The position numbers were made by a program, and so were the translations under genes. Under the pieces are notes generated by a model. That model was not told the DNA's origin, did no database searches, and worked only from the letters and a program-made list of their open reading frames with translations. 64,000 nucleotides of DNA from Phycisphaeraceae bacterium (GTDB taxonomy: Bacteria; Planctomycetota; Phycisphaerae; Phycisphaerales; UBA1924). The DNA is taken from positions 2,838,643-2,902,642 of the forward strand of contig CP054186.1 of the NCBI GenBank assembly GCA_015200025.1, in the 5' to 3' direction. Below are positions 1-12,954 of the stretch, one piece after another; position 1 is the first letter of the stretch; each line of letters starts with the position of its first letter.

Positions 1-2982
1 TCCGGAACGACGCCCGTCTTTGACTTCAAGCCCGGCGACGAGCGCGCCGCCACCGGGTCGCACTACACACCCGACGACCTCGTCCAGCCGTTGATCAAAC
101 ACTCGCTCGACCACCTCATCACCGAGCGGCTCAAGGCCAAGGACCCCGCCGCCGCGCTGCTCGACCTCCGCGTCGCCGACATCGCCTGCGGCTCCGGGCA
201 CATCCTCCTCGCCGCCGCCCGCCGCATCGCCACCGAGCTCGCGATCGTCCGGACCGGTGAGGAGCAGCCCTCCCCGACCGCATACCGCGCCGCCATCCGC
301 GACGTCATCCGCACCTGCATCTACGGCGTCGACCTCAACCCCCTCGCCGTCGAGCTCTGCAAGGTCGCCCTCTGGCTCGAGGCCCACAACCCGGGCGAGC
401 CGCTCAACTTCCTCGACCACCACGTCAAGTGCGGCAACGCCATCGTCGGCTTCGTGAAGCGGGAGGAAGTCGACGCGGGCGTGCCGGATGAGGCCTTCGC
501 CAAGCTCCCGGGCGACGATCCCGACATCGGCAAGGAGGTCCGCGCCCGCAACAAGCGCGAGCGCAAGGAGCGTGCGACGGGGCAGGCCAAGCTCGCCTTC
601 ACGCACCAGCGCGAAACCGAGCTCGCTGCCGTGCTCGACCGGTGGCGGACCGTCACATCCATGCCGGAGACCACGCCCGCCGAGATCAACGCCAAGAAGA
701 ACGCCTTCGAGTCATTTTCGTCCTCCGGTGCCGCCTTCACGCTCCGCAACCTAGCCTCGATCCCGATTGCCCAGTTCTACATCCCGCGAACGCCAGAGAA
801 CGCCGATCGGCTGATAACCGACGAGCGGTTCAGGGACTTCTGGTCGGGGCGTGTCGCCGCGCAGGGGCAGGCACCAGCGGCGGCGTTAGCCCTCGCCCAC
901 CGCAAGCGGTTCTTCCACTGGTTTATCGAGTTCCCGGAGATCGTCCAAAGGGGTGGCTTCGACTGTATCCTCGGCAATCCGCCATACCTCGGCGGCCAAG
1001 CGCTCAGCGGCACCTACGGACACGAGTTTTGTGGGTACGTCCGTCACGCATTCGCCCCGACCGGCTTGAGCGATCTTGTCGTCTTCTTTCTCCGTCGGAT
1101 TTTCCGCCTTCTGCGGCCCAGCGGCTTCGCGGCGTTCATCACGACGAACTCCATCAAGGATGGTGACGTTCGGAAAGACGGCCTAGAGCAGGTCGTCGCC
1201 CAGGGCGGCAGCATCAACTTTGCTGTGCGCGGCATCAAGTGGCCTGGGCGGGCGAATCTGGTCGTGTCCCTTGTCGGCGTTCACCGCGGCGGGTGGAAAG
1301 GTCGCCACGTACTCGACGGCCAAGAGGTGCAGACGATCACGCCATTCTTTGAGGCTGAGGCTGACGCCGGAAAGCCGCATGCCCTCGCGGACAATGGAGC
1401 GCGAGTGTTTCAGGGTTCTATCTTTCTGGGCGACGGCTTCTTGCTCACTCACGACGAAGCTGAGAATCTTATCCGACAGGGCCCCAGCAACCGCGAAGTT
1501 ATCCAGCCCCTCATCAACGGGCAGGAGCTGAACAACGCACCCGACCAGCGGCCGGGCCGATCAATCATCAATTTCCGCGACTGGACTGAAGACAGATCGC
1601 GACGGTTCTCTGAGCCGTTTGCGATCGTCGAAGCGTCTGTCAAGCCGGAGCGAGAACGTCAGGGCGACGCGACGGGCCGACAGTACTGGTGGCGATTCTT
1701 GCGGCCACGTGGTGAGCTTTACCGCAGTCTGGAAGGAAGGCAGTGGTGTCTCGTCGCCGCTCGGACCACCAAGTTCTTGAGCTTCTCGGCCTGCCCCACG
1801 GATAGGGTGTTCTCCGACGCTCTCTACGTGTTCACAACTGACCGCTGGGATCTCTTCACGGTAGTGCAATCCACGATCCACGAGATGTGGGCGCGAAAGT
1901 ACAGCGGGGCTCTCGAAACGCGACTCCGATACTCGCCCTCTGACTGCTTCGAGAACTATCCATTCCCAAACGGACTCTGGCGTTCTGATGACCTGGCTCT
2001 CGCCGCTCCCGGCGAGCGTTACCACGAGCACCGCCGCTCGCTCATGCTCTCGCTCTGGCTCGGCCTGACCGACGTCTACAACCTCTTCCACTCCCGCGAC
2101 GTCGAAGCCGAGCTGAAGGCGCATTTTGCCGCCCGGGCCAAGAAGGACCCGCGTGGCCTCTCCATTCCGCCCGAGCACCGCGAGCGGGCGCTCGCGTTCA
2201 CCTACGACCAGGGCTTCGCCAGCCTGCACGAACTCCGCCGTCTCCACGTTGCTCTCGACAATGCCGTCCGCGACGCGTACGGCTGGACTTCGCTCGACCT
2301 TCAGCACGATTTCTATGAGGTCGAGACCCTCCCCGAGAGCGATCGCGTTCGCTACACCATCAGCCCCGCCGCCCGCAAGGAAGTCCTCAAACGGCTTCTC
2401 GCCCTCAACCACGAACGCTCCAAGGCCGAACAGGCTGCCGCAGCCCCGGCCGTGGCCAAGCCCGCCCGGGCCAAGCGTGCGGCGGTGGCGACTGCCGTCG
2501 AGGAGATGACCGTCTTCGATCAGGCGTTCCCCGCGACGGCGGTGGATTGGGAGACCGCGAGCTGGATGCTGGCACTGGTTCGCGCCGCGCCACGCAGAGG
2601 CATGGCCTTCTACATGGCGTGCATGGCTGCCGCGGCGTCCCCGGATCTGTGTGAGCAGATACTGCCGCAGGATCGAAAGCAGCAGACCAAGCGACTGATG
2701 GCGAAAGCGCCGCTGGCCAAGCAGCCGAGCGGCACGCGCATCCCGTTTGCGGCGGCGCTCCGCTGGGCATCAACCACCAAGGCGATCACCACATCTGCTC
2801 AGATGAACGACGCTCAGCCCGGGCCGACTTTCCCGCGCGCTGTGAGCGAAGCGGGGATGCCCAAGCTTGACGATGCGCTGATATCGCTCGTCATTAAAGT
2901 GGCAGAACACGCCACCGACGCGACCCAAGCCACGCAGCCGTGGCGACAGGCGTTTGAGCAGAGGAGGTTGTTGGTGGGATGA
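1..2982 (+). CDS. MmeI/PglX-like gamma-class N6-adenine DNA methyltransferase (type IIL/IIG-like); 5' end lies upstream of the window
   Basis: Frame 1 is open from nt 1 (SGTTPVFDFKPGDERAATGSHYTPDDLVQPLIKH), so the TTG at nt 91 is internal. SAM motif I DIACGSGHILL is at nt 178-210. HHVKCGNAIVG and FHWFIEFPEI are present. Motif IV GNPPYLGG is at nt 973-996. TNSIKDGDVR, WPGRANLVVSL and GDGFLLTHDEAENL match my memory of the MmeI-family MTase/TRD blocks. There are about 165 extra C-terminal residues. Confidence 0.8.
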   Translation, partial: SGTTPVFDFKPGDERAATGSHYTPDDLVQPLIKHSLDHLITERLKAKDPAAALLDLRVADIACGSGHILLAAARRIATELAIVRTGEEQPSPTAYRAAIRDVIRTCIYGVDLNPLAVELCKVALWLEAHNPGEPLNFLDHHVKCGNAIVGFVKREEVDAGVPDEAFAKLPGDDPDIGKEVRARNKRERKERATGQAKLAFTHQRETELAAVLDRWRTVTSMPETTPAEINAKKNAFESFSSSGAAFTLRNLASIPIAQFYIPRTPENADRLITDERFRDFWSGRVAAQGQAPAAALALAHRKRFFHWFIEFPEIVQRGGFDCILGNPPYLGGQALSGTYGHEFCGYVRHAFAPTGLSDLVVFFLRRIFRLLRPSGFAAFITTNSIKDGDVRKDGLEQVVAQGGSINFAVRGIKWPGRANLVVSLVGVHRGGWKGRHVLDGQEVQTITPFFEAEADAGKPHALADNGARVFQGSIFLGDGFLLTHDEAENLIRQGPSNREVIQPLINGQELNNAPDQRPGRSIINFRDWTEDRSRRFSEPFAIVEASVKPERERQGDATGRQYWWRFLRPRGELYRSLEGRQWCLVAARTTKFLSFSACPTDRVFSDALYVFTTDRWDLFTVVQSTIHEMWARKYSGALETRLRYSPSDCFENYPFPNGLWRSDDLALAAPGERYHEHRRSLMLSLWLGLTDVYNLFHSRDVEAELKAHFAARAKKDPRGLSIPPEHRERALAFTYDQGFASLHELRRLHVALDNAVRDAYGWTSLDLQHDFYEVETLPESDRVRYTISPAARKEVLKRLLALNHERSKAEQAAAAPAVAKPARAKRAAVATAVEEMTVFDQAFPATAVDWETASWMLALVRAAPRRGMAFYMACMAAAASPDLCEQILPQDRKQQTKRLMAKAPLAKQPSGTRIPFAAALRWASTTKAITTSAQMNDAQPGPTFPRAVSEAGMPKLDDALISLVIKVAEHATDATQATQPWRQAFEQRRLLVG

Positions 2983-4961
2983 CCCCGACCTTCCTCGACC
3001 TCAAGCCGTTGCGGACCGAGCCGGTCTTCTGGATCCGGCGGGTCGTCATTCTTGAGCGGCTCGACCCATTCGAGATGGTCAACGAGTTCTCCTTCAAGCG
3101 CGGCCTGAACATCGTGTTCGGCGAGGAGAAGGGCTCCTGGCGAGACATCAAGGCGTCGGGTCACGGCGTCGGCAAGACCTCGCTCTGCCGGCTGATCCGT
3201 TACTGCCTGGGCGAACCGCACTTCGGGCGTCGGCGGGTCGTCGCCGCAATCCGGCAGGATCTTCCCGCTGGTTGGGTCGGGGCGGAACTGCGCGTCGGTG
3301 GTCAGTCCTGGACTGTCCTGCGGCCCTTCGCCGTCGGGCCGTGGTCGCGGGCCGCCCGCGACACTTCGGTGGAGGATCTGGCGCTACAGCGACAGCGAGT
3401 TGTGCCATACAGCGAGTTCGAGGCCGCTTTGTCGTCGGCGCTTATGGCGAACATGCCGCGGAAGGGCCAGGTCGTCCCCGGCATCACGCTGACGCACAGT
3501 CACCTGCTCCCTGCGTTCACGCGCGACCAGGAGTGCCGCCTGGAGTCCGTGTGGAGGTGGAGGTCGGAGCGCAGCGACTCCGAGACCCCCAGCCTGCCCC
3601 GCCCCAAGATCGACGGCAGCAGGGTCATCCGCGCCATTCTCGGAGTGCTGGACGCCGAGGAACTGACTTTGCAGGACGATCTCGACAACTGCACCAGCGC
3701 CGCCGACAGGCTCCGCGTGCAAGTCGACACGCGGCTCAACGAGCCCCGCTATTGGGTCGCGAGGTTGAATCAGGCACTGCTGGATCAAGGGGTCCCGGGT
3801 GTCGCGCAGGATGCGGGCGAGTTGTTCTCGCCGGCGAACCGTGTCTCATCGTTCCTTGGGGGTCTCCGGGACGAACTGAAGGTGCTTGAAAGCAAGCTAG
3901 AGGCGGACAACCGGGAGCTCCGTTCTGTTCTCGCTCGCATCGAGACCAGGGAGGCAGATCGGAGAGATCGGGTTGCACTGCAGGGCTTGCAGTCGAAGCG
4001 CGGCGACGCGGCTGCGCAGTACACGCAGGACGAACGCGATGTGATGGCCAAGCTGAAGGCGCTGCAGTCGGGGCTCCAGACGTGCAACTACGGCGGTATT
4101 CCGTTCCGAGACTGCGGGCACATCGATGACCATCTGGGGCGGCTCGAGGGCTCGCGGGATGTGGCTCTTCCGGTCATTGCTCAATCTGACCAGGCAGCAG
4201 CGAGTTTCGCTGCGGATATCGAGGCGATTGACAAGGAGCTGGTCGAACCGAGAGCGAGGGCGATTGCGCTCGAGAAGCGGGTTGCGGAATTTTCTGCGAA
4301 GCAGCGCTCGTCCGAACGCCGCATTGAAGCCATAGAGCGTCTGGGCCGGGAGCTGGACCGATATGCGGGTCTGATCGCCGGAACCGAGCAAGACGCCGAG
4401 CTCGCGCGGCTCCGAGAGACGCTGCGGCTCGAGGAGGCGACCCAAGCCGGTCTCGCCGTCAAGGTGCAGGGCGTGCGATCCCGCACAACCGAGCAGTTCG
4501 ATCGCGTACGACGTCTGTACTCAGCGGTCATCGCCGCGGCACTGTCGCCGGACTACTCGGGCGAGATTGTCGTGACCGACGACGAGATCGAGTTCGAGAT
4601 CAGGCGAAAGGCGGCGATTGGCGGTGAGGCCGTCGAGTCGCTGGCCGTCGTGCTTGCTGACGCATGCGGCCTGCTCGCGTCCGTCGAGGGTGCCGCCAAC
4701 CATCCCGGTTTCGTCGTCCATGACAGCCCGCGTGAGGCGGATCTTGGTTCGGCCCTTTACCACCGATTCATCTCGTTCATGCTGGAAAGCCACAACACCC
4801 TCGGCGGTGAAAACCAAGCGCCGTTCCAGTACATCATGACGACGACAACCCCGCCACCTACGGAATGCAACGGGGTGATTCGCGTGCATCTGTCGGATGA
4901 TGATGACGCACGGCTGCTTTTCAAGCGTCGGCTTGGGTCAACGCCGTCCGGGCTGCTGTAG
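2979..4961 (+). CDS. Coiled-coil ABC/SMC-like P-loop ATPase (DUF2326 / ABC-3C-ATPase-like architecture)
   Basis: Its ATG at 2979 overlaps the methyltransferase TGA (ATGA). The N-terminal block FKRGLNIVFGEE...ASGHGVGKTSLCRLI carries the P-loop at nt 3159-3182. The central ~300 aa (aa ~225-520) are charged, helical and heptad-like. The C-terminal motif HPGFVVHDSPREADL (nt 4710-4745) looks like a Walker B/D-loop and is followed by FQYIMTTT. The family assignment is from memory of the motif layout, not from a search. Confidence 0.6.
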   Translation: MTPTFLDLKPLRTEPVFWIRRVVILERLDPFEMVNEFSFKRGLNIVFGEEKGSWRDIKASGHGVGKTSLCRLIRYCLGEPHFGRRRVVAAIRQDLPAGWVGAELRVGGQSWTVLRPFAVGPWSRAARDTSVEDLALQRQRVVPYSEFEAALSSALMANMPRKGQVVPGITLTHSHLLPAFTRDQECRLESVWRWRSERSDSETPSLPRPKIDGSRVIRAILGVLDAEELTLQDDLDNCTSAADRLRVQVDTRLNEPRYWVARLNQALLDQGVPGVAQDAGELFSPANRVSSFLGGLRDELKVLESKLEADNRELRSVLARIETREADRRDRVALQGLQSKRGDAAAQYTQDERDVMAKLKALQSGLQTCNYGGIPFRDCGHIDDHLGRLEGSRDVALPVIAQSDQAAASFAADIEAIDKELVEPRARAIALEKRVAEFSAKQRSSERRIEAIERLGRELDRYAGLIAGTEQDAELARLRETLRLEEATQAGLAVKVQGVRSRTTEQFDRVRRLYSAVIAAALSPDYSGEIVVTDDEIEFEIRRKAAIGGEAVESLAVVLADACGLLASVEGAANHPGFVVHDSPREADLGSALYHRFISFMLESHNTLGGENQAPFQYIMTTTTPPPTECNGVIRVHLSDDDDARLLFKRRLGSTPSGLL

Positions 4962-4990
4962 CAACCGAACGGTTCCAGACCTTTATGGCA

Positions 4991-5383
4991 TCAGCGCGAA
5001 CGAAGCCGCGCCCACAGCCTTCGCTGCTCGCTCCACGCGACCTTGCGGGTGAGTTGACGAAGTGACCGCTCGTGAATTGGGTCGTGCCCCCGTTCGACCC
5101 GAGGGAGCAGCAAGATCTCCTCCTGAATGTCCGGCGCAAGGTGCAGCAGGTTCATGATCTGCGTCATCCGCGGCTGCGTGACCTGGCACAACCGTGCGAG
5201 CTCCGACAGGTCGGCGACGACGCCCTTGCGGAGAAGCCGGTCGTACTTGATCGCCAAAGCCATCAGGCGGGCCACGCGGGGCACACGGCCCGGCAGTTCG
5301 GCCTTCGGGGCCTCGGGGCCAAGAACGACGCGTTTGCGGCGGGCCTTTCGGGTGATGTGGATGGTTCTCACGACGGTGGTCAC
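4991..5383 (-). CDS. Small ParB-type helix-turn-helix DNA-binding protein, likely a recombinase accessory protein
   Basis: LSELARLCQVTQPRMTQIMNLLHLAPDIQEEILLLP resembles the ParB HTH segment. A GTG at 5383-5381 overlaps the recombinase TGA (GTGA), which suggests translational coupling. The track's longer start at 5410 is also possible. Confidence 0.55.
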   Translation of the reverse strand: MTTVVRTIHITRKARRKRVVLGPEAPKAELPGRVPRVARLMALAIKYDRLLRKGVVADLSELARLCQVTQPRMTQIMNLLHLAPDIQEEILLLPRVERGHDPIHERSLRQLTRKVAWSEQRRLWARLRSR

Positions 5384-6978
5384 GCGGCTTCCTCCAATCG
5401 GCGGGCGCACAGGGCGGCAATCCCGGTCGCCCGGAACGTCACGGCGACGGTGGCGTTCTCGGCGTCGTACTCGATCTTCGAGAAGAGCAGCTTCAGCACC
5501 CGGCCCTGCTCGCGAGGCGACAGTTGCGCCCAGACCCCGTCGAACTCGTTGAGCGCCTTGCGGGCCTCCTCGCGGGTGATGGCGCTATCTCCGATTAAAC
5601 CCAGCCGTGTCTCGACTTCGGCAAGGCGGGTGCGTGCCCCGCTGACCCGTTCGTGAGCGGCGGCCAGCCGCGCGGTGGTAGCGGTGCTCCCGCTCCGGTC
5701 CGCTACCAGTTCCCGCAACTCCTTCTCCAAGCGGCCGAGCGAGGCGTGGATCGACGCCCGCTCCGACTTCAGCGCCGTCAGTTCCTCGTCTACGTTGACC
5801 TGGGCTTCTGCAAGGATGCGGTCCAGCAACGTCCGGTCGTTGCCGAGCGTCCGGATCTCGTCGACCACGAGCTTCTCGATCTCCAGCCCTGGCAGCGACG
5901 ACGCCTCGCAGGTGTGCGCCCCGTTCTTGATGGCTTCCAGACAGCGGTAGTAGCGGTACTGCTTGTTCCGCTTGCCGTAGAAGGTGTGGATCATGGCGCA
6001 GTCGCACTTCTTGCAGCGCAGGAGCCCACGCAGGAGTGCCCCGTACTTGTTGCGCATCTCGATACCACCGGTCCGACCGTTCTCGAGGAGCTGCTGGCGG
6101 ACGCGCTCGAACAACGCGGGATCGACGATCGCCTCGTGCTCGCCGTCGTAGGTGTTGCCCCGGTGGACGATCTTGCCCGTCAGAAGCGGGTTGGTCAGAA
6201 GAACGTGGAGGGTGCCCGTGTTGAAGGGCTGGCCGCCGACGCTGACCCCCTTCTTGGTCACCCGGCGCTTGTTCATCCACTCCCGGTGCCGGAGTTCGGT
6301 GACGGCCCGCTGGAGCGACCCCTTGTCGAGGTAGATCTGGAAGATCGCGCGGACCTTGGCCGCCTCGCGGGGGTTGACGACCAGGCGGGGACTGCCGCCA
6401 GAACGATCCACGTCGTAGCCCAGGATGGGCACGCCGCCCGCCCACTTGCCCCGGCGCTTCTGGGCGGCAATCTTGTCGCGGATCCGCTCGCCGATGATCT
6501 CACGCTCGAACTGGGCGAACGAGAGCAGGATGTTGAGCGTCAGCCGCCCCATCGAGCTCGTGGTGTTGAACTGCTGTGTCACCGAGACGAACGAGACGCC
6601 CTTGCGGTCGAACGACTGCATAATGCGGGCGAAGTCCATGAGCGACCGGCTCAGGCGGTCCACCTTGTAGACCACGACGCAGTCGACCTTGCCGGCCTCG
6701 ATGTCCTTCAGCATCTGCTCCAGCGCTGGCCGTTCCATGCTGCCGCCGGAGAAGCCGCCGTCGTCGTAGCGGTCTGGAAGGCAGATCCACCCTTCGTTCC
6801 GCTGGCTGGCGATGTACGCCTCCGCGGCCTCCCGCTGGGCGTCGAGGGAATTGAACTCGAGTTCTAGCCCCTCTTCGCTGCTCTTGCGGGTGTAGATCGC
6901 ACACCGGATCGGCCCGGGCGCTCCCGCGCCCCGTTCCCGCGATGGCGGCACGCTGGGCGTTCGGCCTCGCTTGGTCAT
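5380..6978 (-). CDS. Large serine recombinase (resolvase/invertase N-terminal domain plus recombinase and zinc-ribbon/coiled-coil C-terminal region)
   Basis: The N-terminal CAIYTRKSSEEG...SLDAQREA contains the catalytic Ser context, followed by VVVYKVDRLSRS and the recombinase-domain block GGVPILGYD. A Cys-rich segment (CKKCDCAM...YYRC...HTC) and a coiled-coil tail follow. The protein is 532 aa. Confidence 0.9.
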   Translation of the reverse strand: MTKRGRTPSVPPSRERGAGAPGPIRCAIYTRKSSEEGLELEFNSLDAQREAAEAYIASQRNEGWICLPDRYDDGGFSGGSMERPALEQMLKDIEAGKVDCVVVYKVDRLSRSLMDFARIMQSFDRKGVSFVSVTQQFNTTSSMGRLTLNILLSFAQFEREIIGERIRDKIAAQKRRGKWAGGVPILGYDVDRSGGSPRLVVNPREAAKVRAIFQIYLDKGSLQRAVTELRHREWMNKRRVTKKGVSVGGQPFNTGTLHVLLTNPLLTGKIVHRGNTYDGEHEAIVDPALFERVRQQLLENGRTGGIEMRNKYGALLRGLLRCKKCDCAMIHTFYGKRNKQYRYYRCLEAIKNGAHTCEASSLPGLEIEKLVVDEIRTLGNDRTLLDRILAEAQVNVDEELTALKSERASIHASLGRLEKELRELVADRSGSTATTARLAAAHERVSGARTRLAEVETRLGLIGDSAITREEARKALNEFDGVWAQLSPREQGRVLKLLFSKIEYDAENATVAVTFRATGIAALCARRLEEAA

Positions 6979-7499
6979 CGCCCACCCCGCAATCCGAAGA
7001 AGCGGTACCCGTTGATGTGCTGGCCCGTCACCTTTTTGGCGATCACCGACAGCGTGCCGTACCGCTCGCCGTCGAACTCGAAGCCCTCACCGTCCGCGAG
7101 CACCATCACCCGGATCGTCCGCCCCTTGTATTGGCGGACAATCGCGGAGCCGGGCGGCGGCAGCCGGGGATCGCGCCGGTCGCGCGGGTCGAGCGACCGC
7201 ACGCAGGTGCGGATCTCGCCGGGCTGCGGCGGGGAAGTGTACGAGCGGGGAGCCATCGTGCGGATTTCGGCGTCGTCGGCGAGTTCCGCCGCCCGCCGCT
7301 TGGCTCGCTCGCTTAGGTCGCCTTCCGCGTTGGCCTGGATGCGCCACGCGATTTTGCGGATCAGGTAGGCGCGGTGGCGCGTCCGGCAGGCGTGGCCGTG
7401 GAGTTCCTCGTAGCGGTCCACCAAGTCGCTGGTGGTCATCCGCTGAATCTCGCCGAGTTGTCGTTCAATGGCGTCGGGCATGGGGGTTCCTCTTCGCAT
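6975..7499 (-). CDS. DUF2924 domain protein, the usual partner of large serine recombinases
   Basis: LGEIQRMTTSDLVDRYEELHG...RAYLIRKIAWRIQ and the C-terminal YKGRTIRVMVLADGEGFEFDGERYGTLSVIAKKVTGQHINGYRFFGL match DUF2924 as I remember it. Its stop overlaps the recombinase ATG (ATGA at 6975-6978). Confidence 0.8.
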   Translation of the reverse strand: MRRGTPMPDAIERQLGEIQRMTTSDLVDRYEELHGHACRTRHRAYLIRKIAWRIQANAEGDLSERAKRRAAELADDAEIRTMAPRSYTSPPQPGEIRTCVRSLDPRDRRDPRLPPPGSAIVRQYKGRTIRVMVLADGEGFEFDGERYGTLSVIAKKVTGQHINGYRFFGLRGGR

Positions 7500-7510
7500 G
7501 GCCCGGAGCC

Positions 7511-7963
7511 CTAACCCCGGGGCCGTGCGGAGACACTGAGGTCCGCATGCCGCGGAAGTTCAAGTCGATCGGCGTCAGATTTCGCCTGGTCGCTCGACTC
7601 CCGGGTGGAGCGCGAACGCTCCGCATGGATGGCCCGCGCGAGGCCGCGAGCGAAGATGCTCGCCACTTCAGCGTCGCGCTCCGCAGGCGTCATGGACTCG
7701 GGCCTGGTGTTTGAGATCACGGTGAGCTCCGGGTCGGAGAGATTGGCCGCGACGATCGCAGCCGCATCACCGCATGCCTTTATGCAAAAGTCGCGCGCCG
7801 CGTGGCGCGATAGCCAGCGGATCGCGTTTGCAACCGCATCAATCCCGCCTTCGCGAGCACCAACCCCTCTTAACCCGGGCACCCGGCGTCGAGAGACGCG
7901 GAGAGACTTTGGGCCAGATTCGCGCCCGTGAGGCCCGAGCGGGTCAGAACTGGTTATGGACAC
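7511..7963 (-). CDS. Hypothetical protein, possibly the first gene of the recombinase operon
   Basis: It is an open frame ending 12 nt upstream of the DUF2924 start. No motif was recognised. The start is uncertain, and a competing + frame ORF (7605-7931) exists. Confidence 0.3.
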   Translation of the reverse strand: MSITSSDPLGPHGRESGPKSLRVSRRRVPGLRGVGAREGGIDAVANAIRWLSRHAARDFCIKACGDAAAIVAANLSDPELTVISNTRPESMTPAERDAEVASIFARGLARAIHAERSRSTRESSDQAKSDADRLELPRHADLSVSARPRG

Positions 7964-8035
7964 GGAGCGCGGCAGAGACCCGCCCCGCGGGCCGTCGTGC
8001 TGGCGAACCCTTCGGAACGTGGGCCAAAACGCGAA

Positions 8036-8063
8036 AACGCCGCCGAGGTCTCTCGGCGGCGTT
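8036..8063 (-). terminator. Perfect 12-bp GC-rich hairpin; possible second terminator or island-boundary element
   Basis: aacgccgccgag (8036-8047) and ctcggcggcgtt (8052-8063) pair around a 4-nt loop. On the minus strand it is followed by a partly U-rich ttcgcgttttgg. Confidence 0.4.
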
Positions 8064-8065
8064 CC

Positions 8066-8103
8066 CTGAAAACCAAAGGGCCGGCTGCTTTCGCAACCGG
8101 CCC
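8066..8103 (-). terminator. Rho-independent terminator of tRNA-fMet
   Basis: The minus-strand RNA reads GGGCCGGUUGC-GAAA-GCAGCCGGCCC (8078-8103) followed by UUUGGUUUUC. Confidence 0.7.
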
Positions 8104-8108
8104 GGCAA

Positions 8109-8182
<74 letters not shown>

Positions 8183-8193
8183 ATCTGGATCTA

Positions 8194-8222
8194 TTCATAG
8201 CCCACCATTTCTCCCGCGTCAA
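8194..8222 (-). promoter_or_regulatory. Sigma70-like promoter for tRNA-fMet
   Basis: The minus strand reads TTGACG (8222-8217), a 17-nt spacer, then TATGAA (8199-8194), about 12 nt upstream of the mature 5' end. Confidence 0.5.
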
Positions 8223-8348
8223 TGCCACGCCCGCCCGGAGGTGGTCGTGGGGGGATGGGTGGGGGGGCGGATCCCTTCGAGCCGGTTTCCGCTCGGTTCG
8301 CCCCGCGTGCGCTCCATCGCGGCCCTCCCGTCCCTACCATGCCCCCCA

Positions 8349-9896
8349 ATGCCCGAACGACTGAACGTCCTCCTCATCGGCGGCGGCGGCCGCGAGCACG
8401 CCCTCGCCATCGCCCTCAAACGCTCCCCTCGCCTCGCCGCCCTCTACACCACCCACCCCGAGAACCCGGGGCTCGCCGCCCTCGCCGCTCCCGTCGACGT
8501 CCCCGTCAGCGCGAGAGAGCTCTACCGCCTCCAGCAGTTCTGCCTCAAAAAATCCATCGACCTGGTCGTCATCGGCCCCGAAGACCCCCTCGCCGACGGC
8601 TACGCCGACAAACTCGCCTCGCCCGAGGCCGGTTCTCCCATGGTCTTCGGCCCCACGCGGCAGGCCGCCCAGATCGAGGCCGACAAGGCCTGGTCCAAGC
8701 AACTGATGCGTTCCGCCAGCGTGCCCACCGCCGAGTCCCGCTCGTTCTCCGACCACGAAGCCGCTCGGCAATACATCGAGTCCCGCGCCCACGACGACGA
8801 ACACCTCCGAGTCATCCTCGAGCGCTTCGCCGCCCTCCGCGACCCCGCCCGGCGCCGCTACGCCATCGACGCCATGCTCCGCGTCGGACGCGCCGTCGCC
8901 GACAAAAAGCCCTTCGCCAACGCCGACCTCAACGTCCTCAAGGACACCGGCACCTTCCGGACCCCGGGCGCCGATCCTTCGCCCATCCTCGCCGAGGCCG
9001 CCTCCCTCTGGAAGCTCTGGACCCTCAAGCGACAGGACCTCCCCGTCATCAAAGCCTCCGGCCTCGCCCGCGGGAAGGGCGTCATCCTCCCCGATTCACT
9101 CCTGCACGCCTTCGACGCCATCGACGACATCATGGTCAGAAAGTCCTTCGGCGACGCCGGACGAACCGTCCTCGTCGAGGAACGCCTCGAAGGCCCGGAG
9201 GTTTCCGTCCTCGCCCTCGTCGACGGCCGTTCCATCCTCGTCCTCCCGCCCTGCAAAGACCACAAACGTCTCGGAAACCGCGACACCGGCCCCAACACCG
9301 GCGGCATGGGCGCCACCTGCCCCACCTCGCCGCTCTCCGACGAACAGATGGCCGCCGTCGAGGCCGAGATCCTCGTCCCCACCATCGACGCCCTCCGCCG
9401 CGACGAGATCGTCTACAAGGGCGTCCTCTACGCCGGCCTCATGCTCACCCACGCCGGGCCCAAGGTCCTCGAGTTCAACTGCCGCTTCGGCGACCCCGAG
9501 TGCCAGCCCCTCATGGCCCGACTGACCTCCGACCCCATCGACCTCATCGAAGCCGTCTGCACCAGCACCCTCGACCAGGCCGCCGAACGCGTCACCTGGG
9601 ACCCACGGCACGCCTGCTGCGTCGTCCTCGCGTCCCACGGCTACCCCGACACCCCGCGCAAGGGAGACGTCATCACCGGCCTCGACGACGCCGACGCCCT
9701 CCTCAAAGGACGTGGCTTCGTCGCCCACGCCGGGACACGCCGAAACGCCGACGGCGCCATCGTCACCGACGGCGGACGCGTCCTCTCCGTCACCGCCCTC
9801 GGCGATTCCCCCGCCGACGCCCGCGCCCTCGCCTACAAGGCCGCCGACCGCATCCACTTCCCGGGCCTCCAACGCCGCGACGACATCGGCGCCTGA
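8349..9896 (+). CDS. purD: Phosphoribosylamine-glycine ligase (GAR synthetase) with an ~80-aa insertion
   Basis: LNVLLIGGGGREHALA, VIKASGLARGKGV, KDHKRLGNRDTGPNTGGMGA, EFNCRFGDPECQ and TDGGRVLSVTALG align with E. coli PurD. The ATG at 8349 (MPERLNVLL) is preferred over the track start at 8241. Confidence 0.9.
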   Translation: MPERLNVLLIGGGGREHALAIALKRSPRLAALYTTHPENPGLAALAAPVDVPVSARELYRLQQFCLKKSIDLVVIGPEDPLADGYADKLASPEAGSPMVFGPTRQAAQIEADKAWSKQLMRSASVPTAESRSFSDHEAARQYIESRAHDDEHLRVILERFAALRDPARRRYAIDAMLRVGRAVADKKPFANADLNVLKDTGTFRTPGADPSPILAEAASLWKLWTLKRQDLPVIKASGLARGKGVILPDSLLHAFDAIDDIMVRKSFGDAGRTVLVEERLEGPEVSVLALVDGRSILVLPPCKDHKRLGNRDTGPNTGGMGATCPTSPLSDEQMAAVEAEILVPTIDALRRDEIVYKGVLYAGLMLTHAGPKVLEFNCRFGDPECQPLMARLTSDPIDLIEAVCTSTLDQAAERVTWDPRHACCVVLASHGYPDTPRKGDVITGLDDADALLKGRGFVAHAGTRRNADGAIVTDGGRVLSVTALGDSPADARALAYKAADRIHFPGLQRRDDIGA

Positions 9897-10039
9897 TCCC
9901 CGCGGCGGCCCCTCCGGGGATCCGCCCCGCCCTCCCGCCCCGGCCACGCGATTACCCTCGCGCGAAACCCGGCGACCTTTCCACCCTATAACATCCGTAA
10001 TCGGGCCGATGCCGTGTGCCCTCAAAAAGGGGATCCGCC

Positions 10040-10780
10040 GTGAAAGCGACGATGATCTGGGACTGGCCGACACGACTCTTCCACTGGTCCTTCGCCGGAG
10101 GGATCCTCGCCGCGGCCTTCATCGCCCTCGCCCTCGGTGAGCACCACACCCTCTTCCCCTACCACGCCATCCTCGGCCTCACCCTCGCCCTGATCCTCGC
10201 CCTCCGACTCGTCTGGGGGGTCATCGGCACCCGTCACGCCCGGTTCCGCGACTTCGCCTTCGGCCCACGCGCCGTGCTCGCCTACGCGGCCTCACTCCTC
10301 GGCCGGGCCCCGCAACGCCACTCGGGACACAACCCGGGCTCCGCCTGGGTGATCTTCGCGCTGCTCGCCGTGGCCGCCGTCATCATCACCACCGGCGTCA
10401 TGCTCGGCCGGGGTTTCGAAGCCGCCAAAGAGATCCACGAAACCGCCGTCTGGGTCATGCTCGCCCTCGCCGCCGTCCACGTCCTGGGCGTGGCCTTCCA
10501 CACCCTCCGCTACCGCGAAAACATCACCGCCTCCATGGTCCACGGCCGCAAAGACGCGCCCGCCGAACACGGCATCCCCTCGGCCAAGCCCATCACCGCG
10601 ATCGTCGCGGCGGTCCTCGTCGCCGCCTGGACGCTCTCGCTCGTCACCGGCTTTGATCCCGCCCGCGCCACCACCACCATCCCGGGCGTCGGGGTCACCC
10701 TCAGGCTCGCGGAATCGCCGGAACGCGAGCCCGATCGCCGGCCGGAAAACCGAGCCGACCGCCACGACGACGACGATTGA
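10040..10780 (+). CDS. Cytochrome b561 / Ni-Fe hydrogenase b-type cytochrome family membrane protein
   Basis: IWDWPTRLFHWSFAGG...YHAILGLTLALILALRLVWG, conserved His residues and four predicted TM segments support the call. The start is ambiguous (GTG 10016, GTG 10040, ATG 10052). Confidence 0.7.
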   Translation: MKATMIWDWPTRLFHWSFAGGILAAAFIALALGEHHTLFPYHAILGLTLALILALRLVWGVIGTRHARFRDFAFGPRAVLAYAASLLGRAPQRHSGHNPGSAWVIFALLAVAAVIITTGVMLGRGFEAAKEIHETAVWVMLALAAVHVLGVAFHTLRYRENITASMVHGRKDAPAEHGIPSAKPITAIVAAVLVAAWTLSLVTGFDPARATTTIPGVGVTLRLAESPEREPDRRPENRADRHDDDD

Positions 10781-10844
10781 TGAGCCGCCGCCCGCACCCC
10801 AAAGGGCACGCCGCACACCCAAAGCCCCAAAGTATCATCCCTTA

Positions 10845-12047
10845 ATGATGCTCGCTCTCGCCGCTCTCGCCGCCGCCGCGGGACTCCAGCCCGCCGACAC
10901 ACTCGGTCCAGCCCTCTCCCCATCGCCCGCCCGCGAAATCCTCGTGGCCGACGACGCCGCCCTGCGACGTGCCCTCGCCGACGCCCGCCCCGGCGACGCC
11001 ATCCTCCTCGCCCCGGGGAAGTTCCGCGGGTTCACCGCCGACAACCTCCGCGGCGAACCCGACCGCCCGATCATCGTCCGCGCTCAACACCCCGCCGACC
11101 CCCCGGTCTTCACCTCCGGCGTACACCTCGTCCGACCACGCCACACCGAACTCGCCGACCTCCACAGCATCGACGCCCCGCACAACGCCTTCAACATCGA
11201 CGACGGCGGAAACCACCTCACCCCGGCCCAACACCTCACTATCCGCCGGCTCACCATCCGCGACAACGGCGGACGCGCCAACGCCGACGGGCTCAAACTC
11301 TCCGGCGTTCAGGATGTCCTCGTCGAGCACTGCACCTTCGAGCGGTGGGGGAGGGGCGGCAGCGCCATCGATATGGTCGGCTGCGCCCGCGGCGTCATCC
11401 GAGACTGCACCTTCGCCGACCTCGAATCCGACCCCGCCTCCAACGCCGTCCAGACCAAAGGCGGCTCCTCCGACATCACCATCCGCCGATGCCGGTTCGT
11501 CCACGCCGGGCAACGCGCCGTCAACATCGGGGGCTCCACCGGCCTCCCCTACTTCCGCCCCCCGGACGCACCCCACGAAGCCCGCAGCATCACCGTCGAG
11601 GGCTGCACCTTCATCGGCTCGCACACCCCCGTCGCCTTCGTCGGCGTCGACGGCGCCGCCTTCCGATTCAACACCGTCTACCTCCCGTCCCGCTGGGCCG
11701 CACGCATACTCCAGGAATCCACGGGCCCCAGGTTCGTCAAATCCCGGAACGGCCGTATCGAGGACAACCTCTTCGTCTATCGCCGTCGGGACATCTCAAC
11801 CATGATCAACGTCGGGTCGGGCACGAAGCCCGAGACCTTCCGCTTCGCGCGCAACTACTGGTTCGCCACCGACGATCCCGCGCGGAGCATCCCCACCCTC
11901 CCGGCCGCCGAGACCGACCCCGCCGGCGGCCGAGAGCCCCGATTCCGCGACCCCGACCGGCTCGACCTCCGGCAGACCCCCGAAAGCCCCGCCCTGCCGC
12001 ACGGCGCCGACGCCCTCCCGGCCGACCCGCCGACCATCCCGCGGTGA
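10845..12047 (+). CDS. Secreted right-handed parallel beta-helix repeat protein (pectate-lyase fold, function unknown)
   Basis: A signal-like MMLALAALAAAAGL begins at ATG 10845. Repeated short beta-helix-type segments follow (LTIRDNGG, VLVEHCTFERWG, GVIRDCTFADL, ITIRRCRFVHAG, ITVEGCTFIG). Confidence 0.6.
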   Translation: MMLALAALAAAAGLQPADTLGPALSPSPAREILVADDAALRRALADARPGDAILLAPGKFRGFTADNLRGEPDRPIIVRAQHPADPPVFTSGVHLVRPRHTELADLHSIDAPHNAFNIDDGGNHLTPAQHLTIRRLTIRDNGGRANADGLKLSGVQDVLVEHCTFERWGRGGSAIDMVGCARGVIRDCTFADLESDPASNAVQTKGGSSDITIRRCRFVHAGQRAVNIGGSTGLPYFRPPDAPHEARSITVEGCTFIGSHTPVAFVGVDGAAFRFNTVYLPSRWAARILQESTGPRFVKSRNGRIEDNLFVYRRRDISTMINVGSGTKPETFRFARNYWFATDDPARSIPTLPAAETDPAGGREPRFRDPDRLDLRQTPESPALPHGADALPADPPTIPR

Positions 12048-12126
12048 TCCATCGACCTTCCCCCGAACTCGGCCGGGCTTGGCGCACTTCGACCCTGATT
12101 ATGTTATGTTGCCGCCCGGAGGTCGC

Positions 12127-12954
12127 ATGCCACGCCACGCCCGCCGCGCGTTCACCCTGATCGAGCTCCTCGTCGTTATCGCGATCGTCGCCCTGCTCAT
12201 CGCGATCACGCTCCCCGCACTCCGCTCCGCGCGAGAGGCCGCACGCGCCACCCGATGCGCCGCCGTCATGCGGCAGCCCGCCGCCGCCCTCACCCTCTAC
12301 CAGAACGATTACCGCCACTTCCCCGCCCACCAGATCCGACTCCCCGACGGCTCCCGCCACCGCTGGTTCGCCGCCCTCGCCGAGTACGCCGATACGCGGA
12401 TCGGCGTCCGATGCCCCTCCACCCCCGACTGGGAGATCTCGCGCAACCACTCCTTCGGCTACAACTACAAGTACCTCGGCAGCATGCGAGACCTCAACAT
12501 CCCGGGCAACCCCTTCCGTCCATACGAGTCCTTCCCCGTCCGCGATATCCACGACCCCACACGCACCATCGCGTTCGCCGACGGCGACGGCTCCGGCCGA
12601 TCCCTCCCCTACGCCCCCGAGGGCCCCGACCAGCACCCCGACCGATGGGGCAACCACGGCTACACCCTCGACCCCACCTACATCCCCCTCCGCAGCGAAC
12701 TCGGCGCCGAGAAATACGCCGCCGGCATCCACCGAACCTTTCTGTCCGAGCGTCACCGCGGGGTTTCCAACGCCGCCTTCGTCGACGCCCACGTCGCCGC
12801 CGTCACGCCCGCCGAGGCCTACGCCGACAACCGCCTCTGGAACGGCCACGGGTTCGATCCCGGCGCCGACCCCAAGGTCTACGGCCACCACCTCGACCCG
12901 CACGTCCCGTACAAGTTCGACCCGGGCTCCGGCCAGGAATGGCCGTACCACTGA
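12127..12954 (+). CDS. DUF1559-type protein with a prepilin N-terminal cleavage/methylation domain
   Basis: RRAFTLIELLVVIAIVALLIAITLPAL is a classic type IV pilin-like leader. GGAGG lies 4 nt upstream of ATG 12127. A possible promoter (TTGGCG ... TATGTT) lies at 12079-12108. Confidence 0.8.
   Translation: MPRHARRAFTLIELLVVIAIVALLIAITLPALRSAREAARATRCAAVMRQPAAALTLYQNDYRHFPAHQIRLPDGSRHRWFAALAEYADTRIGVRCPSTPDWEISRNHSFGYNYKYLGSMRDLNIPGNPFRPYESFPVRDIHDPTRTIAFADGDGSGRSLPYAPEGPDQHPDRWGNHGYTLDPTYIPLRSELGAEKYAAGIHRTFLSERHRGVSNAAFVDAHVAAVTPAEAYADNRLWNGHGFDPGADPKVYGHHLDPHVPYKFDPGSGQEWPYH

Follow-up and report, generated by a model that had tools for sequence, protein, structure and literature searches.

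The window analyzed here, by which we mean the whole 64,000-nucleotide (nt) stretch of a Phycisphaeraceae bacterium genome (GenBank contig CP054186.1, positions 2,838,643 to 2,902,642), opens in positions 1 to 4961 with the 3′ half of a four-gene defense operon of the ARMADA (disARM-related antiviral defence array) Type I class, in which a DNA methyltransferase gene is directly followed by the gene of a 660-amino acid (aa) SMC-like ABC ATPase. The remainder of the operon could be read from the contig ENA ERZ27309505 k141_51316 (428 kb; locus L001), which contains an exact match to the 660-aa protein and where four co-directional genes encode a 1722-aa helicase, a 958-aa SNF2 helicase, a 1428-aa methyltransferase, and the 660-aa ATPase, with a 4-nt overlap at each junction (2845/2848, 5718/5721, and 10001/10004). 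An earlier interpretation of the window that used its letters only (hereafter, the sequence-only reading) had seen in the methyltransferase and the ATPase a pair without a helicase or a separate nuclease. That premise fails because the genes directly upstream in L001, joined by 4-nt overlaps, are two helicase genes, one of them with a Vsr-like tail. Its own caveat, that the 5′ end of the methyltransferase and any upstream genes lie beyond the window, proved decisive: 435 codons and both helicase genes are located there.

The operon thus delineated has the order ArmC-like YprA/DruE-type helicase (with DUF1998 and a Vsr-like tail), ArmA-like SNF2 helicase, ArmB-like PglX/DrmMI methyltransferase, and ATPase, and homologous plasmid operons begin at the helicase gene. 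Pfam domains of the 1722-aa helicase are DEAD, ResIII, Helicase_C, and MZB (MrfA Zn-binding, DUF1998), and its best PADLOC matches are Druantia DruE models, far ahead of DrmA (E ~1e-10), while the 958-aa protein contains SNF2-rel_dom and matches the DpdE, DrmD, and BrxHII models. An alignment of the helicase C-termini displayed a Vsr-like PDFxY...FxDGPxHD pattern. For comparison, ARMADA Type I has been described as a YprA-like helicase, followed by a BrxHII-like helicase and a PglX-like methyltransferase, with the first helicase being DruE-related and ending in a C-terminal Vsr-type nuclease, and Type II as having a different fourth gene, the RelE-GajB helicase (Bell et al., bioRxiv 10.1101/2025.09.15.676423). 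The entries listed as “ARMADA Type I helicase” in Table S1 of that preprint include plasmid operons that bear ATPase homologues (records CP143888 V2V90_24365, CP049160, CP006880, CP140866, and CP080530), and the helicase fragment of the window operon is 62% identical to the Caballeronia helicase on CP049160, which is the single matching place in that record. We are highly confident of this anatomy and classification.

The methyltransferase gene occupies positions 1 to 2982 of the window (+ strand), where its frame is open from the first base and contributes 993 residues, i.e., the 3′ 993 codons of a 1428-aa PglX/DrmMI-like N6-adenine DNA methyltransferase (ArmB of ARMADA Type I) as identified with Pfam and PADLOC; the full gene spans 5718 to 10004 of L001. 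The part within the window matches the PADLOC DrmMI model PDLC02643 with E = 3e-193, and the full gene matches DrmMI with E = 4e-215. Two motifs could be read directly and are intact on the + strand: the S-adenosylmethionine-binding motif I DIACGSG (178 to 198) and the catalytic motif IV NPPY (976 to 987). These are followed by a MmeI-type target recognition domain at 1429 to 1971 (+; Pfam PF20466, aa 477 to 657, E = 1e-12). A single-polypeptide enzyme of the MmeI type (IIL/IIG) was considered and rejected: the N-terminal 440 aa matched MmeI_N with E = 0.13 and 13 bits only, against a cut-off of 27, and the gene belongs to a multigene helicase operon. As a side observation, the PADLOC model PDLC02626, labeled “DrmD,” matches the C-terminal part of the methyltransferase (open reading frame (ORF) aa 742 to 812, nt ~2224 to 2436, E = 1e-36) as well as the DrmMI of locus L035, and was probably built from methyltransferase fragments and mislabeled.

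At the junction of the two genes, the methyltransferase stop codon TGA (2980 to 2982) overlaps the ATG at 2979 that starts the ATPase gene (2979 to 4961, + strand), forming an ATGA overlap at 2979 to 2982 (+) that can be read from the sequence. Comparable tight junctions were found in ~80 loci spread over unrelated phyla, and in nearly all of these, no more than ~25 nt separate the stop of the upstream gene from the start of the ATPase gene; because the junction is repeated across so many unrelated genomes, it is not due to chance. The individual elements that the sequence-only reading had proposed for this region were confirmed at every coordinate given: the stop/start overlap and its coordinates, the P-loop, the C-terminal motif, a stretch of ~300 charged helical residues, a methyltransferase that is MmeI/PglX-like (with Pfam matches to Eco57I, MmeI_Mtase, MmeI_TRD, and N6_Mtase), and a tight coupling of ATPase and methyltransferase, which conserved neighborhoods show to be recurrent.

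Along the ATPase, all on the + strand, the Walker A motif GHGVGKTS lies at aa 61 to 68 (nt 3159 to 3182), with G61, H62, G65, and K66 being invariant in our family alignment (A2), and TRDQE takes the Q-loop position (3519 to 3533) with R182 and Q184 invariant. An antiparallel coiled-coil arm follows at aa 226 to 521 (3654 to 4541), which is nearly all helical in an AlphaFold2 (AF2) model (helices 226 to 269, 285 to 364, 380 to 467, and 473 to 521) and consists of charged residues for 32%. The apex of this coiled coil, at the position of a zinc hook, carries a Cys-x9-Cys loop (4083 to 4115; C369 and C379 are invariant or nearly so); in the model, loop 365 to 379 joins two long helices, and one subclade has CPxC there. 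Further downstream, GGEA stands at the position of the ABC signature motif (4620 to 4631), a variant Walker B and D-loop, FVVHDSPREADL, spans aa 578 to 589 (4710 to 4745) with a Ser in place of the catalytic Glu (FVVHDS), and FQYIMTTTTPPP (4824 to 4859) forms the strand at the H-loop position, without its His. The protein continues for ~35 residues past the last strand of the head; because of this short tail, we conclude that the ATPase has no effector domain.

The AF2 model, built from a 45-sequence alignment (pLDDT 87.6, pTM 0.70), shows a split ABC head and a long antiparallel coiled coil. Searching the Protein Data Bank (PDB) with this model using Foldseek yielded Bacillus subtilis YydD as the top match (E 7e-17), followed by Lamassu LmuB (9uxh, 9hqx, and 9hqu, with E from 1e-14 to 6e-13) and Rad50 (E 2e-11), while Smc, MukB, JetC, and PtuA matched more weakly. 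At the sequence level, no Pfam or NCBIfam match was found, the PADLOC LmuB model PDLC03863 aligned over the full length (E = 3e-13, 47 bits only), weak similarity links the protein to the PADLOC family PDC-M68B (E = 3e-10 to 1e-13), and some relatives touch DUF2326; a profile search of PDB sequences returned mainly coiled-coil noise along with weak matches to DUF3732 (LmuB) chains. The sequence-only reading had assigned the protein to coiled-coil ABC ATPases of the ABC-3C/DUF2326 type, which agrees with the LmuB model match, the DUF2326 of its relatives, and the Foldseek results; the structural comparison confirms an SMC-like ABC ATPase fold. The motifs also fit the pattern of LmuB, with Gx4GK[ST] for Walker A and hhhhD[S] for Walker B, where short LmuB proteins have been described with hhhhD[Q/S/T/E] (10.1101/2025.04.02.646746), a variant that is thought to slow hydrolysis. 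The ATPase accordingly is a short SMC-like ABC ATPase of the Lamassu LmuB/YydD type, with a Walker B that lacks the catalytic Glu. Its family is large and uniform in length: among 1.84 billion representatives of 50% identity clusters, we counted 851 clusters at E ≤ 1e-30, every one of them 645 to 700 aa long, and at least 563 species encode a relative (185,579 species genomes). The closest relatives come from metagenome-assembled genomes (MAGs) of Phycisphaerales, by which the host lineage is identified, and homologues go by the RefSeq product name “chromosome segregation protein SMC.”

The constant partner of the ATPase proved to be not the methyltransferase as such but a C-terminal domain (CTD) of ~175 aa in the immediately upstream protein, which is nearly always present. 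In the window, this domain covers positions 2440 to 2967 (+) of the methyltransferase gene, and we propose, by analogy, that it may serve as the docking domain for the ATPase. We found it with a jackhmmer search that started from the 300 C-terminal residues of the methyltransferase in the window (alignment A3), together with BLASTP and hmmsearch, and the resulting hidden Markov model (HMM) scores aa 814 to 989 of the methyltransferase ORF with 135 bits. In all contexts, the final ~175 residues are common to the proteins upstream of the ATPase: ARMADA methyltransferases, DrmMI, HsdS (aa 517 to 678 of 684 in L021; aa 465 to 609 of 647 in L080), a type ISP enzyme (L033, aa 1616 to 1764 of 1796, past its Type_ISP_C domain), AAA_21 proteins, and several 470-aa proteins. 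In ARMADA-I, the CTD and the ATPase occur behind ArmB in both gene orders, and they are also present behind a pair of HKD-SNF2 protein and type IIG-like methyltransferase. BLASTP comparisons of the CTD across hosts span 48 to 129 bits, with 48 bits for ARMADA versus type ISP, 56 bits for type ISP versus HsdS, 93 bits for a 470-aa protein (L053, an ARMADA-context locus) versus AAA_21, and 129 bits for ARMADA versus a protein of unknown kind. The CTD HMM matched 81 of the 89 ATPase-bearing loci compared and gave no match in nine ARMADA-I loci without an ATPase gene of this family. No match to the CTD was found in Pfam or among PDB sequences, and a database search for homologues (single sequence; alignment A3) returned one or two proteins, presumably due to a word-index limit. 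Pairwise distances of the ATPase and the CTD are strongly correlated (Mantel r = 0.92, with none of 2000 permutations as high), and nearest neighbors of the two agree across host types, e.g., modules in AAA_21 contexts are nearest to verrucomicrobial ARMADA modules. Because of this correlation and agreement, we conclude that the CTD and the ATPase move together, and the two behave as a portable two-part module. The methyltransferase-ATPase pair that had been put forward as a defense module thus stands as a conserved partnership, with the amendments that the partner is the CTD of a specificity or methyltransferase protein and that the pair is part of a larger operon.

Relatives of the ATPase occur in a range of restriction-type contexts. 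The four-gene arrangement recurs at ~30% identity in Geobacter, Stenotrophomonas, Caballeronia, Agrobacterium, and Mesorhizobium, and a census of the 79 best species loci placed 40 in ARMADA-I operons of forward order and 1 in a reverse order with the ATPase between methyltransferase and helicase. Class 1 DISARM, with the ATPase between DrmMI and DrmA, accounts for five loci, and two each were type I restriction-modification (RM) operons (hsdR-hsdM-hsdS-ATPase), a type ISP enzyme followed by the ATPase, an HKD-SNF2 (PLD-SNF2) protein with a type IIG-like methyltransferase, and an AAA_21 ATPase upstream; the other 25 were on contigs too short for full classification or had other contexts. Domain searches back these assignments: L035 encodes full-length DrmD, DrmMI, DrmA, DrmB, and DrmC and is a genuine class 1 DISARM operon with the ATPase, and the type I and type ISP contexts were supported likewise. 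The ATPase is therefore not specific to ARMADA. Canonical type I and type ISP operons were the kind of context that the sequence-only reading had named as speaking against its proposed pair, and these were indeed found, along with class 1 DISARM, around relatives of the ATPase. Its broader claim of an association with defense held up, as the ATPase is a defense-island gene on an integrated element.

The 3′ end of ARMADA-I operons appears to be a hotspot for accessory modules. Operons other than those with the ATPase either end after the methyltransferase or continue with McrBC, with an AAA/DUF3696 ATPase and HNH, or with HNH alone. Examples that lack our ATPase are found in Nocardioides (L012 21649 to 25558, McrB-McrC with an overlap), Acinetobacter soli (L098 19374 to 23239, AAA/DUF3696 ATPase and HNH), and Acidithiobacillus (L095 23932 to 24544, HNH). 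Downstream of the ATPase itself, a gene for an HNH_2 endonuclease was seen in L006 (12007 to 12768), L009 (22078 to 22740), and L010 (16973 to 17743), and also in L046, L076, L078, L082, L083, L086, and L090; in Stenotrophomonas, it overlaps the ATPase gene by 4 nt. The endonuclease may serve the module as an optional effector, and in the window, no HNH gene follows the ATPase. In two ARMADA-I loci (L028 8974 to 9981 and L054 8985 to 9980), the genes of the CTD-bearing methyltransferase and the ATPase are separated by an ORF of ~335 aa that matched no PADLOC model. Complete defense systems were also observed directly 3′ of the ATPase, namely DRT1 in Geobacter (L005 12128 to 15946), a four-gene Zorya in Desulfovibrio (L033 9980 to 17253), and GmrSD in Caballeronia (L008 22262 to 24100), neighbors that are typical of defense islands. 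One relative with a CTD-bearing gene upstream was found on a contig of a Candidatus Thorarchaeota MAG (L036, QMYR01000186.1, 3373 to 5325), a 5.5-kb contig whose binning as Asgard is uncertain.

In the window, the operon lies on an element integrated beside a tRNA-Met gene in the genome of a member of the Phycisphaerales (Planctomycetota). A convergent block on the − strand (4983 to 8183) consists of a 130- to 145-aa ORF, a large serine recombinase (5380 to 6978; Pfam Resolvase, Recombinase, and Zn_ribbon_recom), a DUF2924 protein whose gene overlaps that of the recombinase (6975 to 7499; PF11149, E = 2e-37), a small ORF, and the tRNA-Met (CAT) found with ARAGORN (8108 to 8183), with a terminator-like hairpin at 8103 to 8078 next to it. 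This block has the appearance of a module by which a mobile element integrates, and the tRNA-Met is the probable integration site. The serine recombinase and the tRNA had been noted from the sequence before, as had a lower GC content of the operon, which is real yet modest only (0.60 to 0.68 over positions 1 to 5000 versus 0.68 to 0.76 further on). Related assemblies show parts of the same region: a related Phycisphaerales MAG (L014) retains the stretch from methyltransferase to tRNA at 85 to 91% nucleotide identity, and in a Phycisphaerae MAG (L018), positions 10001 to 12624 are 97.5% identical to positions 4065 to 6688 of the window only, with a break in the ATPase gene that immediately precedes the Cys apex, and 10 kb upstream of the break that are unrelated to the window. 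For the latter, two origins come into question: a copy that was rearranged or has decayed, or a chimeric assembly. Just past the tRNA lies a 589-aa ORF (8222 to 9991, +) without a Pfam match, for which the contig record gives only a faint RHS-repeat annotation.

Taken as a whole, these data are best explained, with a probability that we estimate at roughly 60%, by a four-gene ARMADA-I operon equipped with a portable CTD and ATPase that would act as a sensor gating restriction. A template is provided by Lamassu, where the effector LmuA is held on an LmuB dimer via its C-terminal helical domain, with or without LmuC, and is released upon sensing of DNA ends. By analogy with LmuB and LmuA, a dimer of the ATPase would bind the CTD and so would tether an SMC-like sensor of DNA ends or replication intermediates to the subunit that carries DNA specificity. 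ATP-dependent engagement of the heads, combined with slow hydrolysis, would serve as a switch that licenses or localizes the motor and nuclease of the host system on invading DNA, which here would be the Vsr-like domain of ArmC and the two helicases; otherwise, the switch would keep the host system inactive or confined to methylation. We favor gating because the gene order follows the logic of Lamassu, where a protein ending in a CTD precedes a short LmuB-like ATPase. Still, the specific mechanism, in which a tethered sensor of DNA ends or DNA structure would gate or localize restriction, is put forward tentatively, as somewhat short of an even bet. A broader proposal, which we advance with similar reserve, is that a two-part sensor derived from Lamassu may have been grafted repeatedly onto the specificity subunits of motor-driven restriction-type systems (ARMADA, DISARM, type I, and type ISP), with the restriction complex taking the place of LmuA and SMC-like sensing gating restriction.

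The ATPase could alternatively be a separate defense gene embedded in the operon, which monitors the RM-like complex, as PrrC does with EcoprrI, and fires an abortive response via a partner effector (HNH, where present) once an anti-restriction protein disables that complex. Nested ABC ATPases are known, with some activated by anti-restriction proteins (10.1101/2024.01.29.577857 and the RloC and PrrC literature), the module moves among different host systems, and the ATPase gene has an HNH_2 gene behind it in Stenotrophomonas, Agrobacterium, and Mesorhizobium, and in 7 of the 79 species loci. However, the window and ~90% of the loci contain no effector gene or domain, the ATPase has no room for an anticodon nuclease domain, and a guard without output in most loci fits poorly with so widespread a family. 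We regard such a guard as unlikely. A role in methylation can also be envisioned, where the ATPase would tether the methyltransferase or specificity subunit to host DNA (at replication forks or ends), ensuring self-methylation and preventing autoimmunity rather than sensing invaders. In its favor, the CTD always resides on a subunit with a target recognition domain or methyltransferase (in type I systems on HsdS, not HsdR), and SMC-like proteins bind and bridge DNA; but its nearest relatives among characterized proteins (LmuB, Rad50, and JetC) sense DNA that is foreign or broken, most systems of the ARMADA-I, type I, and DISARM kinds achieve methylation with no such factor, and in two loci (L068 and L074), no methyltransferase lies immediately upstream of the ATPase, so that we consider this role improbable.

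Two further readings fare worse. A stand-alone methyltransferase-ATPase system that needs no helicase or nuclease, the model of the sequence-only reading, could draw on the ATGA coupling and on the fact that the two genes are conserved neighbors, but what lies upstream in the source contig refutes its self-contained nature: two helicase genes there, one with a nuclease-like tail, belong to the same overlapping operon, and genes for an SNF2 and a YprA-like helicase accompany both genes in 41 of 41 ARMADA-context loci; we give it very little credence. The RefSeq names and the SMC-like fold might hint at a housekeeping SMC protein, a reading that is refuted, and to which we assign next to no probability, given an ATPase of 660 aa only that has no hinge domain, occurs patchily on plasmids and islands and always as the 3′ neighbor of an RM-type gene, and finds its top structural matches in LmuB and YydD, not in Smc.

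Returning to the gated-restriction operon that we prefer, a number of observations weigh against it. Only a minority of ARMADA-I operons carry the ATPase (71 plasmid records have a helicase of the ARMADA-I type, and 8 of these carry the ATPase), most being without it; because of this low count, we consider the ATPase an accessory, whose action might not depend on the host system. The HNH gene that follows it in ~10% of loci hints at an effector of its own. The CTD HMM misses seven loci where both the ATPase and its upstream sequence are present (L009, L010, L081, L082, L085, L089, and L090), and weak BLAST links tie only some of these divergent tails to other CTDs. An AF2 model of the CTD from a 3-sequence alignment was unusable (pLDDT 37), and the Mantel correlation is partly expected of any two adjacent, co-inherited segments. 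The likeness to Lamassu has its own limits, as the sequence match to LmuB is weak (E = 3e-13) and the CTD has no detectable match to known families. Furthermore, the Vsr-like nuclease on the helicase rests on the motif and a weak PDB profile match to 3hrl, the only one obtained (E = 0.8), with neither Vsr nor DUF559 detected by Pfam in the helicase C-terminus, and experimental tests of ARMADA have concerned Type II, not Type I.

If the gating model is true, the CTD and ATPase would constitute a previously unrecognized layer of control that links restriction, DISARM, and ARMADA to SMC-based immunity, and Lamassu-type sensing would extend from the release of a toxic effector to the control of a restriction machine. 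This bears on the question of how host and invading DNA are distinguished by DISARM- and ARMADA-type systems and how these avoid autoimmunity, for which an SMC/Rad50-like ATPase that is recurrently connected to the specificity subunit via a domain of its own would offer a concrete, testable handle. In practical terms, annotation tools could add the so far unannotated CTD family as well as the ATPase family, whose members are now mislabeled “chromosome segregation protein SMC” or “hypothetical.” The ARMADA host operon (a 2025 preprint), ABC ATPases within restriction-type loci, and LmuB-like folds are already known, while the add-on of CTD and ATPase is apparently undescribed: our literature search returned no description of the ATPase family as a fourth ARMADA-I gene, nor of the CTD or of the module behind HsdS, type ISP, or DrmMI, with a prior mention in the ABC-3C classification (Krishnan et al. 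2020) being possible in either case. The same search yielded no mention of “PDC-M68.”

Comparison with known systems helps to place the operon. With published ARMADA Type I, it shares the content and order of its first three genes and a location on a mobile element that adjoins a tRNA gene. It differs in that the published definition comprises three genes, whereas the window operon adds a fourth that is translationally coupled to the methyltransferase, which itself carries the additional C-terminal domain; in the main text and the supplements covered, no partner of the ATPase, SMC, ABC, or Lamassu-like kind is named for Type I (bioRxiv 10.1101/2025.09.15.676423). Class 1 DISARM (DrmD-DrmMI-DrmA-DrmB-DrmC) resembles it in the methyltransferase, which is nearest to DrmMI, in the SNF2 helicase, which is similar to DrmD, and in that relatives of the ATPase sit inside genuine operons between DrmMI and DrmA (L035). 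An assignment of the window operon to this class was nonetheless rejected: its YprA helicase is DruE-like and fused, where DISARM has DrmA and DrmB as separate proteins, a separate DUF1998 gene is absent, and no DrmC/PLD gene was found within 10 kb on either side. BREX was rejected as well, with no PglZ or BrxC among the called genes of L001 and NCBIfam BREX PglX models reaching at most 45 bits against cut-offs of 400 to 900, and so was Hma (helicase-methylase-ATPase), whose methyltransferase makes 5-methylcytosine, in contrast to the N6-adenine enzyme with NPPY found here, and whose HmaC does not match the ATPase.

That genes for ABC ATPases can be nested in RM, DISARM, BREX, and Hma loci has been recognized before, and some of these are triggered by anti-restriction proteins (Payne et al., bioRxiv 10.1101/2024.01.29.577857). 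The nested ABC ATPases among the PADLOC candidates reported there are of a similar kind, with PDC-M68B as a weak relative; the present ATPase family, by contrast, has no PADLOC v2 model of its own, and a term search of the main text of that preprint turned up no paired CTD. RloC and PrrC are Rad50-like ABC ATPases linked to RM loci, RloC with a zinc hook, and set a precedent for an ABC ATPase that is physically coupled to an RM complex. The ATPase itself was not assigned to the RloC/PrrC group, having no anticodon-nuclease domain in the short tail after its head and no AAA_13 in Pfam, and its coupling would run via a domain of the specificity subunit. Another parallel is provided by Lamassu and the ABC-3C systems (LmuA-LmuC-LmuB; DdmABC). 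Different from these, the window operon lacks the middle component LmuC and a toxic effector of the LmuA type (no neighbor matched an LmuA or LmuC model), and the protein in the place of the effector belongs to a restriction-type system, as its methyltransferase or specificity subunit. What the two have in common is an ATPase with a short-LmuB ABC head, a short coiled coil, a Cys apex, and a Walker B of the form hhhhD[S], for which LmuB and YydD are the top structural matches, as well as a gene order in which a protein with a C-terminal domain comes first and the ATPase gene follows.

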